Assembly: GCA_043801585.1 (NCBI GenBank)
Contig: JAZDLX010000007.1
Location: 80,625-144,624 of the forward strand
DNA from: a bacterium
GTDB lineage: Bacteria; Electryoneota; Electryoneia; Electryoneales; Electryoneaceae
DNA length: 64,000 bases
Direction of reading: 5' to 3'
Shown: positions 9,791-63,051 of the stretch, piece by piece
Layout of the letters: every line of letters begins with the position of its first letter
Position numbering within the stretch: the first letter of the stretch is position 1
Translations under genes and position numbers: made by a program
Notes under the pieces: generated by a model
The model's database searches: none
The model's input: only the letters and a program-made list of their open reading frames with translations
What the model was told of the DNA's origin: nothing

Positions 9791-9882
9791 GGGAGCGGAT
9801 GTGATCCTGGTGGACGCCGCGGCCTTCAAAGCCGTTGTGGGACCTGACCGTCCCGGCTCGGTTCGATTCCGAGACGTTCCCG
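9791..9882 (+). tRNA. selC: tRNA-Sec-like candidate (anticodon UCA, long variable arm); D-arm non-canonical by hand fold
   Basis: T-arm CTCGG/TTCGATT/CCGAG at 9857-9873. Anticodon stem GCGGC/GCCGT with loop CTTCAAA, anticodon TCA at 9826-9828. Variable-arm hairpin GGGAC-ctgacc-GTCCC. 7-bp acceptor GGGAGCG/CGTTCCC and discriminator G. A 6-bp D-stem could not be built. Confidence 0.4.
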
Positions 9883-9921
9883 CTACCCGAGCAGCGCTGA
9901 ACGGGATGGGCTGCGACAGGG

Positions 9922-42642: not shown

Positions 42643-43668
42643 ATGGCGGAAATGAGGCATGATCCTCTGCACCGGCGTTGGGTTGTCATTGCGCCGGAAC
42701 GGGCGCAACGGCCCACGGATTTCAAACCCCACGGCGAGGAGGCGAAGGGGGACGATCCATTTGCCGAGGGCAACGAGGATCTGACTCCTCCGGAAATCTT
42801 TGCGATCCGTAAACCGGGTTCAAAGAAAAATGGACCCGGCTGGACTGTTCGTGTCGTTCCCAACAAATACCCCGGTTTTCGTGTGGAGGGCGAGCTTGAG
42901 CGGTCAGGCGACGGACTCTACGACCGCATGAACGCCCTGGGAGCTCACGAGGTGATCATCGAGGGACCCCGCCGCGACGAGGATATGACCCAGTTTACAC
43001 CGGAACATCTCTTCGACCTCGGGTTGGTGTGGCGTGAACGGATGACCGACCTGATGCGGGACATCCGGCTTCGCTATGTCCTGTTGTTCAAAAACCACGG
43101 ACGCATCGCCGGGACGAGCCTCACGCATCCGCATTCCCAGGTGATTGCTACGACGATCACACCGAGGATGATTTCGCACAAACTCGAGGCGGCACGGGAT
43201 CATTACAACACCCGCGAACGGTGTCTGATCTGCGACATGATTCAGCAGGAGCTGCGCGAGCGCAGCCGGATCGTGACGGTCAACGACCGTTTCATCGCGT
43301 TCACTCCCTACGCCAGCCGTTTCGATTTTGAGGTCTGGGTGATGCCCCGATACCATCAGCACGATTTCCGGCAGATTGGCGACGAGGATCTGAAAATCTT
43401 CATGATCACTCTGCAAGAGGTTTTGTTGCGGCTGCGAACGGCGCTGAACGACCCCCCGTGGAATTTCGTGTTGCAAAGCGCGCCGAACAGCGAGAGCGAT
43501 ATTCCCCGACCGACGCATTGGACCACCCTGAAATATGATTGGCACTGGCACGTTGAGATTACCCCGAGGCTGTCCGTCAGCCAGGGATTTGAATGGGTGA
43601 CCGGTTTTTTTATCAACACCACGACACCGGAACAGGCAGCGGAAGTCCTGCGAGCCATCCGGTTGTAA
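42643..43668 (+). CDS. GalT-like HIT-family hexose-1-phosphate nucleotidyltransferase
   Basis: Active-site HPHSQV (HxHxQ), two GalT half-domains, 341 aa. Confidence 0.75.
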   Translation: MAEMRHDPLHRRWVVIAPERAQRPTDFKPHGEEAKGDDPFAEGNEDLTPPEIFAIRKPGSKKNGPGWTVRVVPNKYPGFRVEGELERSGDGLYDRMNALGAHEVIIEGPRRDEDMTQFTPEHLFDLGLVWRERMTDLMRDIRLRYVLLFKNHGRIAGTSLTHPHSQVIATTITPRMISHKLEAARDHYNTRERCLICDMIQQELRERSRIVTVNDRFIAFTPYASRFDFEVWVMPRYHQHDFRQIGDEDLKIFMITLQEVLLRLRTALNDPPWNFVLQSAPNSESDIPRPTHWTTLKYDWHWHVEITPRLSVSQGFEWVTGFFINTTTPEQAAEVLRAIRL

Positions 43669-48482: not shown

Positions 48483-48557
48483 GGGGCAGTAGCTCAGTTT
48501 GGTTAGAGTGCCGGCCTGTCACGCCGGAGGTCGCGGGTTCGACCCCCGTCTGCCCCG
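48483..48557 (+). tRNA. tRNA-Asp (anticodon GTC)
   Basis: Acceptor GGGGCAG/CTGCCCC, anticodon stem CCGGC/GCCGG with loop CTGTCAC, T-loop TTCGACC, discriminator G. Confidence 0.9.
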
Positions 48558-48570
48558 CAAAATCATTAGC

Positions 48571-48599
48571 CCTGTCGGATTTTCCGGCAGGGTTTTCTT
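48571..48599 (+). terminator. Intrinsic terminator after tRNA-Asp
   Basis: 8-bp stem CCTGTCGG/CCGGCAGG (one G-U) with loop ATTTT, followed by GTTTTCTTG. Confidence 0.6.
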
Positions 48600-48609
48600 G
48601 TATCAGGGG

Positions 48610-48653
48610 TGTCATTGCCAGCCATCACGTCTGTTTGTGATGGCGAGGCAATC
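48610..48653. repeat. Palindromic hairpin unit TGTCATTGCC-[AGCCATCAC..GATGGCGAG]-GGCAATC, related to the MITE terminal repeats
   Basis: Shares the TGTCATTGCC...GGCAATC flanks with the elements at 48738 and 61541. Confidence 0.4.
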
Positions 48654-48689
48654 TCCAATACTTTTTGACGCTGTGGAACTGATTTGGAG

Positions 48690-48727
48690 ATCACCGCGCG
48701 ATGCCAAACCGCGGCATCGCTGGTGAT
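48690..48727. repeat. Long imperfect hairpin ATCACCGCGCGATGCC-aaac-GGCATCGCTGGTGAT
   Basis: About 14 bp paired with two bulges, immediately upstream of the MITE-like element. Confidence 0.35.
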
Positions 48728-48737
48728 GACACCTCTT

Positions 48738-48910
48738 TGTCATTGCCCGGCTTGACCGGGCAATCCAGAGACTCTGAGTTTTGTTCAAGGATTGTGAAAC
48801 CCGGGACTGATCCGCCGGTGGGCGGACAAGAGTCCCGGGCCACCCGGCCTCAGTGCAGTGATGAACCAACGGCAAAACGGCGAGATTGCTTCGCTTCGCT
48901 CGCAATGACA
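48738..48910. mobile_element. MITE-like non-autonomous element (173 bp) with hairpin-forming terminal inverted repeats TGTCATTGCCCGGCTTGACCGGGCAATCC ... GATTGCTTCGCTTCGCTCGCAATGACA
   Basis: The termini TGTCATTGC / GCAATGACA are reverse complements. Internal nested palindrome CCCGGGACT..CCGCCggtgGGCGG..AGTCCCGGG. A shorter copy with near-identical termini lies at 61541-61626. No ORF. Confidence 0.4.
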
Positions 48911-49065
48911 TATAAAGGGAGCCTTCACGACGGTATTCACGGTTGCCTGGATGCTCCTTTATCCCTTGTCCCACTGAACCCCCGCATACTACCTTCCCTG
49001 CTGTCATTTTCAGAAGGTGTGCGGAATCCATCGCGCACGTTTCCCCACGCCACCAAGGACTTCAG

Positions 49066-50316
49066 ATGACAACAAAGACGGTTGCTGGTGCATCGAAAAC
49101 CCAGCATTTTATCGACCTTGAAAACAAGTACGGCGCCCATAACTACCACCCACTGCCGATTGTCATTGCGAAGGCCAAAGGAGTCTGGGTAACCGACCCC
49201 GATGGCAGGAAATACATGGACTGCCTCGCCGCCTACAGCGCCCTGAATCAGGGATACAACCACCCCCGGATCATGGCAGCGGCACGCGAACAACTGAAGA
49301 CGGGCGTGACCCTGACCAGCCGCGCCTTTTACAACACGAAACTTGGCGAATTCCTCGAGAAAGTCTGTAAAATCACCGGCCATGACCGTGCCCTGCCGAT
49401 GAACACCGGCGCGGAAGCCGTGGAGACGGCGATCAAACTGGCCCGCCGCTGGGGCTACCGGGTGAAGAAGGTCCGCAAGGGCCAGGCACAGATCATCGCC
49501 TTCAACGGCAACTTCCACGGCCGTACGACGACCATCGTCGGCTTCTCCTCGGCTGAAGATTACAAAGAGGGATTTGGACCGTTTACGCCCGGATTCAAAA
49601 TGGTGGATTACGGCGACATCGCGGCGCTGGAAAAGGCGATCACGAAGAGCACTGTCGCCATTCTGATCGAGCCGATCCAGGCCGAGGGCGGCATTCTGAT
49701 CCCGCCAAAGGGCTACTTGAAGAAGGTCGCCGCGCTCTGCAAGAAGCACAATATCCTGTTGATCGCCGATGAGATCCAGACCGGTCTCGGGCGGACAGGG
49801 AAGATGTTCGCGATGGATCACGAAGGGGTGAAGCCGGACGTCTACCTCCTTGCGAAGGCGATCTCCGGGGGATTCATGCCGGTCAGCGTTGTCACCGCCA
49901 ACAACGATGTGATGAGAGTCTTCGATCCGGGCAGCCACGGCAGCACCTTCGGCGGCAATCCTCTCGGTGCGGCGGTGGCCGTGGAGGCGTTGAATATTCT
50001 TCTGGACGACAAACTTCCTCAGCGTGCCGCCGAGCTGGGTGAGTATTTTGTCCGGGGATTGAAAGCGATCAAGAGCAGGCATGTCAAAAGCATCCGTGCC
50101 AGGGGCCTGTTGATCGGCGTCGAAATCAGACGTGAGTCCGGCGATGCACGTCCCTTCTGCGAAAAACTGATGGAGAAGGGCATTCTGGCGAAAGAGACTC
50201 ATGAGAGCGTGATTCGTTTCGCCCCGCCCCTTGTGATCACAAAAGAGGAAATCGACTGGGCGCTGAAACGTATCGCTGCTGTACTGACCGACGAAGCGCC
50301 TGTTGAACGCAACTGA
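49066..50316 (+). CDS. rocD: Ornithine aminotransferase (class III PLP aminotransferase)
   Basis: NYHPLP motif, class-III aminotransferase core (DEIQTGLGRTGK), ATG 49066. Confidence 0.85.
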   Translation: MTTKTVAGASKTQHFIDLENKYGAHNYHPLPIVIAKAKGVWVTDPDGRKYMDCLAAYSALNQGYNHPRIMAAAREQLKTGVTLTSRAFYNTKLGEFLEKVCKITGHDRALPMNTGAEAVETAIKLARRWGYRVKKVRKGQAQIIAFNGNFHGRTTTIVGFSSAEDYKEGFGPFTPGFKMVDYGDIAALEKAITKSTVAILIEPIQAEGGILIPPKGYLKKVAALCKKHNILLIADEIQTGLGRTGKMFAMDHEGVKPDVYLLAKAISGGFMPVSVVTANNDVMRVFDPGSHGSTFGGNPLGAAVAVEALNILLDDKLPQRAAELGEYFVRGLKAIKSRHVKSIRARGLLIGVEIRRESGDARPFCEKLMEKGILAKETHESVIRFAPPLVITKEEIDWALKRIAAVLTDEAPVERN

Positions 50317-59925: not shown

Positions 59926-61449
59926 TCAGGCGTTCATATCCGACCATTTCTTCGCCATCTGGTTAAAGATGATCAGGGCGATGATCGCCAGCACTCCAAT
60001 CGTGGCGATGGGAATCCAGACATGAAACTGGGGGTTGTAGGTGTCCCAGAGCAGCCGTGTGGCATCGCTTCCGCCAAGATTCAACGTCTGTTTCAACGCC
60101 TCAAAGGACTCCGTTCGTGGAATCCCGAGCAGATGTTCGAGCTGACTGGGACTTCCGTTCCACTGTCCGAGTTTTCCCTCGCCCAACGCCGTGTGTTGGA
60201 GCAGGTATTTCTGCGCGAGTACCGCCTTGTCGCCCCAGCGTCCATAGAGCCATCCCGCAAGCTGGCTTCCAACGAAAAGACCAATGCCAACCGGAATGTT
60301 CACATAGCCGAGGTACAGACCCTTTTTGCCGGGAGGGGCGATCAGGCCGAGGTATTCGTTCTTCTTCGGTCCGGTAAGCATCTCGCCGAGGGAGAAAAAG
60401 ACGACTCCGAGCAGGAAGACCGAACCGAGCGTGGTGAAACCGGCGACGAGGATGCCGCAGGTGGCGACGGTCATTCCGATCACCATGGCGGAGAGAGTCC
60501 GCATCTTGCGAACGGTCCATGAGACCGGGATCATCAGCAGGACGATCAGCGCGGCGTTCAGGTTGAGCAGAATTTCCTGTGGCACCTGAGGGCCACGGTC
60601 CGTGAGCACCACCCAGCTTCTCGGCAACCAGCCGCTATGCTGCACCCCGGCAGCGAGAGCGCTTGAATCGATCCAGTCCGTGATGAAGTTGGGATGCAGA
60701 TCCCAGAGCTGGTACATCATCAGCCAGAAGCAGCTCATGATCAGCAGCCACGAGATCAACCGTGGCTCCGCGATGTTTTTCATCGTATAGACGAAAACCT
60801 GCAGCGGGGTGCGGGATTTGTCCGCGCCCGATTCAAAATCCTTGAAGGTGAAGAGCATCAGGTAGTTCAGCGAGGTGATGCCCGCCGCGACCAGGAACAG
60901 GAGTTTCCAGGAATACTCATGGCGAATGAACGCTGCGAGCAGCGGTGCGATGGCCGCGCCCACGTTCACGATCCAGTAGAAGATACCCCAGCCGAGCGAA
61001 CTGTTTTTCTTGGAGAGGTTCTGCGCAAGGCTGCCCTGCAGGGATGGCTTGAAAAACGCCGTCCCCGACGCGAGGATCATCACAGCGGCGAAGAACCCCC
61101 AGAAGCTGTGCATGTAGGCCATCAGCACATAGCCGAGGATGTTCATCGACACGGAGAAGACGAGGGTCTTCTTGTACCCGTAACGGTCGGCATAACCGCC
61201 GGTGACCATCGGCAGGATGGATTGGAACACCCCCCACCAGGCGTAGATGTAGCCTTTCTGCAATGCGGTGAAATGGAGGCCGTGGACTTCATCGGCCTGC
61301 ATGATGTAGATGGCGACTACGGAGCGGACGAGGAAGTAGGCCATCCGCTCCCACATCTCCATCACGTTCAACATCCAGTAGCCGAAGGGAAAACCAAACA
61401 GTCGAAAACTGCCCTGATTCTGCGGCGTGGGCACGGTCGTTTCACTCAT
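59926..61449 (-). CDS. Proton-dependent oligopeptide transporter (POT/PTR2-family MFS permease)
   Basis: ExxERxxYFG-like motif (EMWERMAYFLVRS), GWGIFYWIVNVGA, 12+ TM; 507 aa. Confidence 0.8.
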   Translation of the reverse strand: MSETTVPTPQNQGSFRLFGFPFGYWMLNVMEMWERMAYFLVRSVVAIYIMQADEVHGLHFTALQKGYIYAWWGVFQSILPMVTGGYADRYGYKKTLVFSVSMNILGYVLMAYMHSFWGFFAAVMILASGTAFFKPSLQGSLAQNLSKKNSSLGWGIFYWIVNVGAAIAPLLAAFIRHEYSWKLLFLVAAGITSLNYLMLFTFKDFESGADKSRTPLQVFVYTMKNIAEPRLISWLLIMSCFWLMMYQLWDLHPNFITDWIDSSALAAGVQHSGWLPRSWVVLTDRGPQVPQEILLNLNAALIVLLMIPVSWTVRKMRTLSAMVIGMTVATCGILVAGFTTLGSVFLLGVVFFSLGEMLTGPKKNEYLGLIAPPGKKGLYLGYVNIPVGIGLFVGSQLAGWLYGRWGDKAVLAQKYLLQHTALGEGKLGQWNGSPSQLEHLLGIPRTESFEALKQTLNLGGSDATRLLWDTYNPQFHVWIPIATIGVLAIIALIIFNQMAKKWSDMNA

Positions 61450-61540: not shown

Positions 61541-61626
61541 TTGTCATCCCCCGGCTTGACCGGGGGATCCAGATATTTTTCGATTCTTTCGTTTCCCTTG
61601 GATTGCCCCTCAAGCCGGGCAATGAC
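61541..61626. mobile_element. MITE-like element (86 bp), second copy: TGTCATCCCCCGGCTTGACCGGGGGATCCAGA - 27-nt AT-rich core - TGGATTGCCCCTCAAGCCGGGCAATGACA
   Basis: The terminal ~30-bp hairpins are reverse complements of each other and near-identical to the termini of the 48738-48910 element. Sits between the symporter stop and the POT promoter region. Confidence 0.4.
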
Positions 61627-61674
61627 ATAAAGGGGAGGAGTGCTGAACAAGCATGTATGAAACGGCACCAGCAA

Positions 61675-63051
61675 TCAACGATTACGGATGTAGCCAGGGA
61701 ACAGAGTGACAACGCCGACGAACAAACCGATAAAGATCGGCTGCACTCCGAAGGGATAGCCTGTGCCATAGGAGCCGAGAAATGTCCAGACCGCTGCCGA
61801 GACTCCTGCGAGAAGCATCGAGACGCTCACCCAGGGATCGCGGAACCGCACCCTTTTGCGAAAACTCGCGATCAGGGGCAACAGCAGCATCGGAGTTCCA
61901 ACGGAACCGAGGTCGTACCAGATTTTGACGACCGACTCTTTCCACAGTGCGATCAACACGGCCAGCAGTGCGGAAGCCAGCAGCCCCCACTGGATGCGCC
62001 GGACATCCCAGCGTAAATGAGTCCCCCGTGCCCGGGCGACCAGATCGCGCCCGAGTGTCTGGGCGGCGAGAAACCCGTAGGAATCCACCGTCGACAGGAT
62101 TACTGAAACCAACCCGAGGAGAAACAGCCCGGTGACGCCCGGCGGGAGTACTTTCGCCGCCAGCAGGGGGTATGACAGAAGCGGATCGGCGCCGGGTCCG
62201 AGGATCGCCCTCGCGTAGAGCCCTGAAAAACTGGTGAGAGCGTCGAAAAGCACCCAGAAAAGGATCGAAACGAGGATCCCGCGTCGTGCGGTCCGGGAAT
62301 CCCGGGCGGCGCTGCAACGTTGATGAAATCCGGGGTTCACCAGGGTCGATAGCGCGATCACGTACCAGACCAGCACCGCCCCGATCGGTAACCCGCCGTT
62401 CCACGTCAGATGGTCCTTCGGGAGGTTTGATTTCAACCACGTCAGTCCGCCAGAGTGAATCACCGCGAACGTCAGCAACAGGATAAACCCGATGTACATC
62501 AGCACGAATTGAACCGCATCCGTCCGCACGACCGACCGAAATCCCCCGAAAGCGATGTAGATCGTTGAAAGAAGCGTTCCGATCACCACCCAGACAGCGA
62601 GTTGTCCTCCGAACGTTGCCTGCAGAAGAACTCCGATCATCAGCACATAAGCCGCGGGAACAGTCATGACGAAGACAACCCCTGCGCCGATCAACGCCGG
62701 GCGCCGTCCGAACGCCTTCTCGAGCTGGTCGGAAATCGATGTTACGCCGGAGATCCGGATCCGGTTCGCAAGGAACAATGCGTAGAGCAGCGCCGCAAGG
62801 TAATAGGGCACTCCGAAAACGAGCCAGTTGCTGATTCCATAGGTAAACGAGTATTCGCCGACTCCGAGGATGCCTCCGTACCAGGTCGAAACGAGAGTTG
62901 CCACGAAAGCAGGCAGGGTCAACCGGCGACCGGCGAGCAAGTACTCACTTTCATCACCGTGAGCCTCGTTCCGTGTCCGCCAGGTGACAACGACCAGAAA
63001 GAGGATGTACCCCGCCAGCAGGATTCCGTCGATCGGATGCAATTTCAGCAT
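61675..63051 (-). CDS. Sodium:solute symporter family (SSF) transporter
   Basis: 458 aa, 13-TM SSF topology. Substrate unknown. Confidence 0.8.
   Translation of the reverse strand: MLKLHPIDGILLAGYILFLVVVTWRTRNEAHGDESEYLLAGRRLTLPAFVATLVSTWYGGILGVGEYSFTYGISNWLVFGVPYYLAALLYALFLANRIRISGVTSISDQLEKAFGRRPALIGAGVVFVMTVPAAYVLMIGVLLQATFGGQLAVWVVIGTLLSTIYIAFGGFRSVVRTDAVQFVLMYIGFILLLTFAVIHSGGLTWLKSNLPKDHLTWNGGLPIGAVLVWYVIALSTLVNPGFHQRCSAARDSRTARRGILVSILFWVLFDALTSFSGLYARAILGPGADPLLSYPLLAAKVLPPGVTGLFLLGLVSVILSTVDSYGFLAAQTLGRDLVARARGTHLRWDVRRIQWGLLASALLAVLIALWKESVVKIWYDLGSVGTPMLLLPLIASFRKRVRFRDPWVSVSMLLAGVSAAVWTFLGSYGTGYPFGVQPIFIGLFVGVVTLFPGYIRNR

Follow-up and report, generated by a model that had tools for sequence, protein, structure and literature searches.

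The spacer between the tRNA-Asp gene (48483-48558) and rocD, whose ATG lies at 49066 and whose product is named ornithine--oxo-acid transaminase, is packed with palindromes, and the question is what kind of element they belong to. In the first-pass annotation of the 64-kb window, which is the whole stretch of DNA analysed here (64,000 nucleotides), a 173-bp part of the spacer was taken for a MITE-like element with terminal inverted repeats, accompanied by two separate hairpins and by a shorter copy elsewhere. When the sequence was read directly and searched for inverted repeats, all of the palindromes listed in that annotation were found, with positions within 1 nt, but their grouping turned out to be different. 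The two hairpins that had been described separately (48610-48653 and 48690-48727) both exist, and they form the two arms of a single element, so that the spacer holds two elements in tandem. These are called here element A (48610..48731, 122 bp, inverted repeat I3) and element B (48738..48910, 173 bp, inverted repeats I11, I12 and I14), and the gap between them is 6 nt. Upstream of A, and outside both elements, the terminator scan places the intrinsic terminator of the tRNA-Asp gene at 48568-48604 on the plus strand.

The short 86-bp copy, called element C, is also there and has its end units in common with B, although its true coordinates are 61542..61627 and not 61541-61626 as had been noted. 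It is located 12.6 kb from the A/B spacer, after the stop codon of a sodium:solute symporter gene (61675..63051, minus strand) and before the start codon of the gene for an MFS transporter (59926..61449, minus strand), the two genes being co-directional. A, B and C are all dimers, in which two hairpin units are inverted with respect to each other, lie on opposite strands and have their tags facing outwards, with spacers of 35 nt in A, 117 nt in B and 29 nt in C. The flanking sequences are ..CAGGGG and CCTCTT.. for A, ..CCTCTT and TATAAA.. for B, and ..GTGGGTT and TAAAGG.. for C.

The six units share one anatomy: TGTC, then a stem-loop that starts and ends with AT, and then a C. The canonical form is represented by B-left (48738..48766, plus strand), which reads TGTC ATTGCCCGG CTTGA CCGGGCAAT CC(AG) and has a 9-bp stem, a 5-nt loop and a CCA tail, with a calculated folding energy of −10.9 kcal/mol (z = −4.5). 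C-left (61542..61570, plus strand), TGTC ATCCCCCGG CTTGA CCGGGGGAT CC(AG), shows a compensatory change relative to B-left, from TG..CA to CC..GG, and folds with −11.1 kcal/mol. C-right (61600..61627, minus strand), TGTC ATTGCCCGGCTTGAGGGGCAAT CC(AA), is of the B-left type minus 1 nt, such that a 7-bp stem remains (−6.1 kcal/mol, z = −1.8).

In the three other units, which are variants, an outer stem of 5-6 bp is followed by a small internal loop and an inner hairpin, and the tail is CTC. A-left, located as TGTCATTGCC..GGCAATC at 48610-48653 on the plus strand, consists of TGTC, a two-tier hairpin (outer ATTGCC/GGCAAT, inner CCATCAC/GTGATGG) and C, with TCC as the tail, and folds with −13.8 kcal/mol (z = −5.8). 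A-right (48689..48731, minus strand) is likewise TGTC, a two-tier hairpin (outer ATCACC/GGTGAT, inner GCGATGCC/GGCATCGC) and C, with −14.9 kcal/mol (z = −3.8). B-right (48884..48910, minus strand), TGTC ATTGC GAGCGAAGCGAA GCAAT C, whose outer stem measures 5 bp, is the only one of the six that does not form a stable hairpin when folded alone (−2.7 kcal/mol, z = +0.7). The earlier statement that the ends of B are themselves hairpins is thus correct for the left end, with its 9-bp stem, while the right end is a weak one. The GTCATTGCGAG...CGAAGCAATC type of B-right is found again in Bradyrhizobium, WOR-3, Rickettsiales, the relative L141 and the ssn-bearing locus L121 (Thermodesulfobacteriota-type, a label taken from the source label of protein P0064).

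The folding extends beyond the individual units. The spacer of A has complementary ends, ATCTCCAA/TTGGAGAT, and the DNA fold of the whole element is a three-way junction closed by GGTGTCAT/ATGACACC, with −34.9 kcal/mol and z-values of −5.8 for the plus strand and −6.5 for the minus strand. In B, the ends TGTCATTGC and GCAATGACA constitute the inverted repeat I11, and the nested internal palindrome that had been reported was recovered as a stem-loop of the spacer, CCCGGGACT..AGTCCCGGG, at 48800-48839 (I14); the single-stranded DNA fold of the complete element has z = −3.7. Inside the window the stems covary (TTGCC/GGCAA, CCCCC/GGGGG, CACC/GGTG), and the flanking residues are constant.

Within the 64-kb window, the pattern TGTCATYSC-N(8-38)-GSRATSC has 3 matches against 0.14 expected, and none of 100 dinucleotide shuffles reaches 3. 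A more general pattern, GTCAT followed by a closing stem of at least 4 bp and ATC, gives 8 matches against 1.6 expected; five of the 8 are in the two loci, and the sixth unit, B-right, escapes the pattern as its stem is too short. The palindromes are therefore real and non-random. The bare 9-mer TGTCATTGC is not enriched in the window (12 matches against 15.9 expected), and its matches at 42684 and 49161, considered as further copies, were rejected as chance matches within genes. A very loose motif (GTC, a 6-bp stem and C) was dropped as non-specific, with ca 85 matches against 67 expected.

Hairpins of this architecture have been described before. Di Nocera et al. (2013, PMC3733652) defined 'CGTC-tagged REPs', with the families CGTC-1 to -4, among them dRS3 from Neisseria and RPE-4/RPE-6 from Rickettsia. 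These have a CGTC, TGTC or CCTC tag, an 8-9-bp stem starting with AT, a 4-5-nt loop and a CCA tail, and they occur mostly as 'HH dimers', which have the tags outside and a spacer of 20-100 bp and are often heterodimers. They were described as 'apparently lacking a dedicated transposase', with no transposase or RAYT gene flanked by the units. More recently, Chenal et al. (2025, PMC11893778) described the Neisseria Transformation Sequence (NTS), CGTCATTCCCGCGMAVGCGGGAATCYRG, as an oriented extension of the dRS3 repeat, and generalised it to the Ssn-related motif (SRM). SRMs were found near 71% of the homologues of SsnA (CAX49033.1, cd10448), a GIY-YIG protein of 94 aa, with 42% having them on both sides. 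According to the same study, SsnA and three homologues bind the hairpin as single-stranded DNA only, and on one strand only. The cut is made a few nt upstream of the hairpin tag, and duplex DNA, the complementary strand and RNA are left untouched; the GTC before the palindrome is critical for cleavage while the C after it is critical for binding. In N. meningitidis, transformation by motif-bearing DNA is restricted, a role in transformation that was shown for Neisseria only. The authors likened the NTS-ssnA-NTS arrangement to an insertion sequence and compared it with REP/RAYT systems, and gene-less dimers were not mentioned.

We propose that the three elements are HH dimers, without a gene, of REPs with the CGTC/TGTC tag, that is, of Ssn-related motifs (NTS/dRS3 in Neisseria), and assign to this identification a probability of ca 85%. 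This kind of repeat has been known since 2013 and its partner nuclease since 2025; the copies in the window are further members. The GTC on which cleavage depends is present in all six units, which read TGTC and then AT, and so is the C on which binding depends, which follows the palindrome in every case (five of the six palindromes being stable hairpins). B-left and C-left agree with the 2013 description in full, with the TGTC variant of the tag, the 9-bp stem from AT, the 5-nt loop and the CCA tail, and C-right, having lost 1 nt, is left with a 7-bp stem. The tag and the AT start are retained in A-left, A-right and B-right, but their two-tier or 5-bp stems and CTC tail lie outside the 2013 families. 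All three elements are HH dimers, B and C being heterodimers, and they also resemble the CGTC-tagged REPs in having spacers with complementary ends or a stem-loop of their own and in being placed between co-directional or convergent genes. One departure in geometry is that the 117-nt spacer of B slightly exceeds the usual 20-100 bp.

The similarity to the SRM/NTS motifs includes the oriented hairpin with a GTC tag, the AT..AT palindrome, the 3′ C and the YRG tail, as well as the hundreds of intergenic copies in many phyla and, at eight of eight loci in other genomes, the bracketing of a gene for a single-domain GIY-YIG protein of ca 95 aa. The differences are that no ssn gene is seen in the window, that its elements are gene-less inverted dimers, and that five of its six units, having a 9-bp stem after TG or a two-tier stem, fall outside the hand-made string of the authors, HGTCWYN(0-2)YYVSBRHN(0-5)WNVSBRGN(0-2)RNCYNB. 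This string matches only C-left in the window, with 0.57 matches expected by chance. It recovers 89 of the 295 units listed in other genomes (30%) and misses the remaining 206, including those immediately beside ssn in three loci (L024, L031 and L081). It was therefore treated as a conservative search tool and not as a definition.

One genome per species was scanned with TGTCAT-NN-CCCGG-N5-CCGGG-NN-ATCC, and at least 120 stretches matched. Among the matches listed are Bradyrhizobium and many other Alphaproteobacteria, Nitrospirota, Nitrospinota, Omnitrophota, Gemmatimonadota (Gemmatimonas), Spirochaetota (Treponema), Planctomycetota (Phycisphaerae), Deltaproteobacteria, WOR-3 and Rickettsiales. 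The free positions of the stem, two per side, can pair in 126 of the 127 matches listed, compared to 48.9 expected if the sides were independent, and they make up 10 pair types; the number of pairing matches is inflated by shared ancestry among the matches, but its direction is clear. What stays conserved is the structure, that is, the pairing of the stem.

In the 120 listed loci, 295 units were counted, and 194 of them are in tags-outside pairs of at most 500 bp, whereas neighbouring pairs are tags-inside in only 7 cases and in tandem in 17. Most dimers measure 62-120 bp, with a mode at 95-103 bp, and few fall below or far above this range. The dominant arrangement of the motif is the inverted dimer without a gene. 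In Bradyrhizobium, one intergenic site is filled by different dimers in different species, and no clean empty site was found among the loci of this genus that were searched for one.

Comparisons with relatives of this lineage show that the elements come and go. One protein of the window has its nearest named homologues in Calditrichota, KSB1, Krumholzibacteriota and Latescibacterota, which hints weakly at the FCB group. A, B and C sit in non-conserved intergenic DNA. The tRNA-Asp/rocD spacer of L141 is mostly unalignable with that of the window; it has one unit at the position of A-left together with a related internal CCCGGG stem-loop, the CCCGGG..CCCGGGCCACCCG motif being similar to the stem-loop in the spacer of B, and the right-hand unit is absent. 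The block that is conserved between the window and L141 is the one immediately upstream of rocD (ca 48960-49040), which is downstream of B and not at its TATAAAGGGAG end, to which the first-pass annotation had drawn attention. The spacer between the symporter and MFS transporter genes is 225 bp in the window, where it holds C, and 107 bp in L144 (84% protein identity), where it holds no unit. In L146 (87% identity) it is 604 bp and contains an orthologous heterodimer and 2.2 copies of a 120-bp tandem repeat, which itself contains half-units. On another contig of the same genome, at an unrelated locus, there is a decayed dimer with the same two hairpin types. The differences between the spacers and the decayed dimer elsewhere indicate that the family is dispersed and turning over in this lineage. 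Since the flanks have diverged, the comparison of empty and filled sites is without nucleotide resolution. The decayed dimer and the 120 or more stretches in other genomes bear out the earlier suggestion of a dispersed REP-like family.

Small GIY-YIG proteins are often annotated beside such sequences. All open reading frames of the fetched loci were searched for ssn, and five further homologues were then looked up in their assemblies. In all eight distinct loci obtained in this way (L024, L031, L081, L121, L131, L148, L149 and L150), a putative ssn gene directly adjoins such units. According to their source labels, these loci come from Planctomycetota, Alpha- and Deltaproteobacteria, Thermodesulfobacteriota-type, Latescibacterota, Gemmatimonadota and Daviesbacteria. 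In most of them units are found on both sides of the gene, and L024 and L149 have one degenerate side. In three loci the unit beside ssn is identical to B-left, namely L024 (Phycisphaerae), where one end is degenerate and an exact match to the NTS consensus stands beside the gene, L031 (an alphaproteobacterial MAG), where the unit as a whole is 381 bp and the nuclease gene is frameshifted, and L081 (a deltaproteobacterial MAG), where the gene-carrying unit is likewise 381 bp. The five further loci (two Thermodesulfobacteriota-type, one each of Latescibacterota, Gemmatimonadota and Daviesbacteria) have TGTCAT-hairpin-ATCCAG units with other stems, only a few nt from the start and stop codons. 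The result is a compact SRM-ssn-SRM unit of ca 330-510 bp.

The putative Ssn proteins have 93-97 aa and a single Pfam GIY-YIG domain (PF01541), and the nuclease has thousands of homologues, 68-78% identical across phyla. NCBIfam holds no model specific for it, and the PDB only a distant UPF0213 relative (1ZG2). In the fetched loci, which are not an exhaustive set, this nuclease is the sole coding cargo between such ends, with no transposase. No ssn gene or remnant was found in the 64-kb window, nor, even at E ≤ 10, in ca 70 kb of DNA from the relatives; the motifs in the window may be relics.

Alternative explanations were also considered. One is that the elements work at the RNA level, as mRNA 3′-end stabilisers, processing sites or attenuators, with their spread being secondary. 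Roles of this kind have been proposed for REPs. Element C is located between co-directional genes and would be transcribed if these form an operon, and its single-stranded DNA folds strongly (z = −5.3 and −5.7, the latter for the transcribed strand, with DNA parameters). Moreover, Di Nocera et al. argue for the transcription of many REPs (PMC3733652). However, the spacer has no Rfam match at E ≤ 1, and the whole window gives only tRNAs at the gathering threshold. Scans for sigma-70 promoters and intrinsic terminators came out empty for A, B and C, which have neither a T-tract terminator nor a promoter-like site, and the idea that they supply promoters or terminators is therefore not supported. 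In addition, A and B lie beyond the tRNA terminator, and in each dimer both strands carry a unit. Furthermore, what is conserved, namely the unpaired tag and the 3′ C, is precisely what Ssn needs on DNA, and Ssn does not bind RNA (PMC11893778). On balance, we consider an RNA function improbable as the explanation of the elements, and A, B and C are probably without a dedicated regulatory role. An effect at the RNA level, including a stabilising one of C, could still be compatible with the identification as SRM dimers and exist alongside it.

Another possibility, in line with the first-pass annotation, is a classical MITE. Such an element derives by deletion from an insertion sequence, its terminal inverted repeats are bound in trans by a DDE transposase, and its insertion produces a target-site duplication. 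The inverted ends TGTCATTGC and GCAATGACA fit this, as do the small size (86-173 bp), the intergenic location and the presence of several copies, all of which are shared with MITEs such as the Correia elements. The ends are, however, not sequence-defined terminal repeats but two independent, oriented hairpin units whose stems covary and are often unlike between the left and right arms. The check for target-site duplications that had been called for gave none at A, B or C, and direct repeats of 2-7 nt are not in excess, whatever the offset, among 96 distinct dimers. Conservation in the listed loci ends 1 nt beyond GTCAT on the outside, while on the inside it runs on as CCAGTA. The only cargo gene seen is that of the GIY-YIG nuclease, and Di Nocera et al. 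report no transposase gene flanked by the units (PMC3733652). Nor was a parent insertion sequence with a DDE transposase found: ten window proteins that were looked up, which are a partial set, have ordinary names and no transposase parent is evident among them. These results make a MITE origin very unlikely.

We give just as little credence to the elements being REPINs, that is, pairs of GTAG-type REPs mobilised by RAYT, an IS200-like HUH tyrosine transposase. The architecture does match, with two inverted palindromic units, a 20-100-bp spacer, long hairpins and no duplication. RAYT genes are likewise described as flanked by inverted REPs (PMC3733652). REPINs and BIMEs share with the present elements also the bracketing of a small nuclease gene by its own repeats and the action on single-stranded hairpins. 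But the tag here is TGTC and not GTAG, and the units belong to another super-family, for which no flanked RAYT is reported (PMC3733652). The flanked gene is that of a GIY-YIG protein in eight of eight loci, a hydrolytic nuclease as opposed to an HUH tyrosine transposase that goes through a covalent intermediate. A similar comparison can be made with IS200/IS605 and its palindrome-associated miniature derivatives. These also have subterminal single-stranded hairpins, lack the usual terminal inverted repeats and produce no duplication, but both of their hairpins are on the same strand, where one TnpA dimer cuts, in contrast to the opposite strands occupied by the units in the window. Finally, chance palindromes or a local segmental duplication, which would suit the merely three elements in 64 kb, are practically negligible as explanations in view of the shuffle controls, of the unrelated interiors of B (117 nt) and C (29 nt), which have only their end units in common and thus do not derive from one duplicated segment, and of the presence of the B-left-type unit in many phyla.

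The identification as SRM dimers suggests a mechanism, by analogy with the characterised Ssn proteins. The tag-bearing strand, when single-stranded, would fold with the (T/C)GTC tag left unpaired, and an Ssn protein of ca 95 aa would bind the hairpin and the obligatory 3′ C, which is usually followed by CAG, and cut a few nt 5′ of the tag. In a dimer, one cut per strand is expected, immediately beyond the element, with the same geometry as in the SRM-ssn-SRM units. The dimers are thus most likely non-autonomous relatives of these units, and they could be multiplied or maintained in trans by Ssn, through single-stranded nicking followed by host repair or replication, which would leave no target duplication. 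Where Ssn is present, the motifs may also mark DNA for single-strand restriction.

GIY-YIG nucleases form no covalent DNA intermediate, and Ssn alone can therefore not complete a transposition. The mobility of the dimers is an inference. The further proposal that tags-outside dimers such as A, B and C are mobile elements in the true sense, non-autonomous and multiplied in trans by SRM-ssn-SRM units, is held only tentatively, and we rate it as somewhat less probable than its opposite. Several observations fit it, none of them proving it: the preferred dimer geometry, the lack of duplications, the conservation that ends 1 nt outside the tag, the two gene-carrying units of 381 bp, the ca 70% identity of the nucleases across phyla, and the presence or absence of elements among relatives. 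A literature search for mobile elements that combine hairpin ends with a GIY-YIG protein returned nothing beyond Chenal et al. 2025 and Di Nocera et al. 2013. Mobilisation by a GIY-YIG nuclease is a question for the family as a whole, one that this window cannot decide.

The present results extend the family to this lineage, including two-tier hairpin variants that are missed by the published string. As that string recovers only 30% of the collected units, surveys based on it undercount the family. For annotation, spacers of this kind should be labelled as SRM/CGTC-REP dimers and not as MITEs, terminators or small open reading frames. The dominance of gene-less dimers, which is not discussed in the 2025 paper, sharpens the question of how the repeats multiply. 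If the dimers are indeed mobilised in trans, the process would resemble transposition, with a GIY-YIG nuclease that hydrolyses single-stranded DNA as its initiator and the replication or repair machinery of the host to finish it, and it would differ from the routes taken by DDE and HUH enzymes and by serine and tyrosine recombinases.

Of the 295 units that were defined by the tag, the closing stem and ATC in the genome-scan loci L001–L120 (the matches listed, from at least 120 stretches), no more than 89 match the published degenerate SRM string, and surveys that use this string therefore probably undercount the variants with a 9-bp stem and those of the two-tier type.

Directly outside the tag, the right units of elements B and C share a pyrimidine-rich stretch, which on the tag strand reads CTCCCTTTATA-TGTCAT for the former (window 48911–48925) and CTCCCCTTTA-TGTCAT for the latter (61628–61642). 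Similar CT-rich flanks are found at the left unit of B and in loci L096 and L146, both from relatives, and the wider sample of units shows an upstream flank that is rich in C and poor in G. These flanks may stem from a preference in the cleavage site or in insertion.

Dimers, that is, two inverted units with their tags outside, also occur in other genomes. At a single intergenic site shared by three Bradyrhizobium species, directly 3' of a conserved stop codon, each species carries a dimer (L095 4591–4672, L016 5015–5187 and L119 343–416). The hairpins there are of different types, GCGCGGG/TTGCCGGG in one species and TTCCGGG in the other two, which suggests repeated insertion or replacement at this site. 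In the symporter–MFS spacer of the relative GCA_964538455.1 (L146 10234–10501), a 120-bp tandem repeat of 2.2 copies, 99% identical, opens with the half-unit CCCCCGGTCAAGCCGGGGGATGACA. This local amplification beside a dimer has the look of a BIME-like cluster.

Turning to the spacer upstream of rocD, a block at window 48960–49040, CTTGTCCCA...ATACTACCTTCCCTGCTGTCATTTTCA.AAGGTG, is kept in locus L141 of a relative, while the remainder of the spacer is not conserved. The block is a candidate promoter or regulatory region of rocD. It contains TGTCATTTTCA, which resembles the repeat tag but lacks a proper hairpin. Elsewhere in the window, a tRNA-Sec gene with anticodon TCA lies at 9791–9883 (Rfam RF01852, 64.5 bits), from which the organism is predicted to use selenocysteine.

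Locus L109, from a deltaproteobacterial MAG, has a tags-outside dimer of 386 bp (2236–2621), nearly as large as the units that carry ssn, the gene of the GIY-YIG nuclease. Its AT-rich interior has neither an ORF nor GIY-YIG similarity, and represents either other cargo or a completely decayed gene. In L031 (4331–4634), a frameshift splits ssn inside a 381-bp unit; either the gene is a pseudogene or the assembly has a sequencing error here. The small GIY-YIG nucleases (P0001–P0120) are 68–78% identical between Planctomycetota, Gemmatimonadota, Latescibacterota, Thermodesulfobacteriota, Deltaproteobacteria and CPR Daviesbacteria, much closer than these phyla are otherwise. This suggests that the unit carrying the nuclease gene has often been transferred horizontally.
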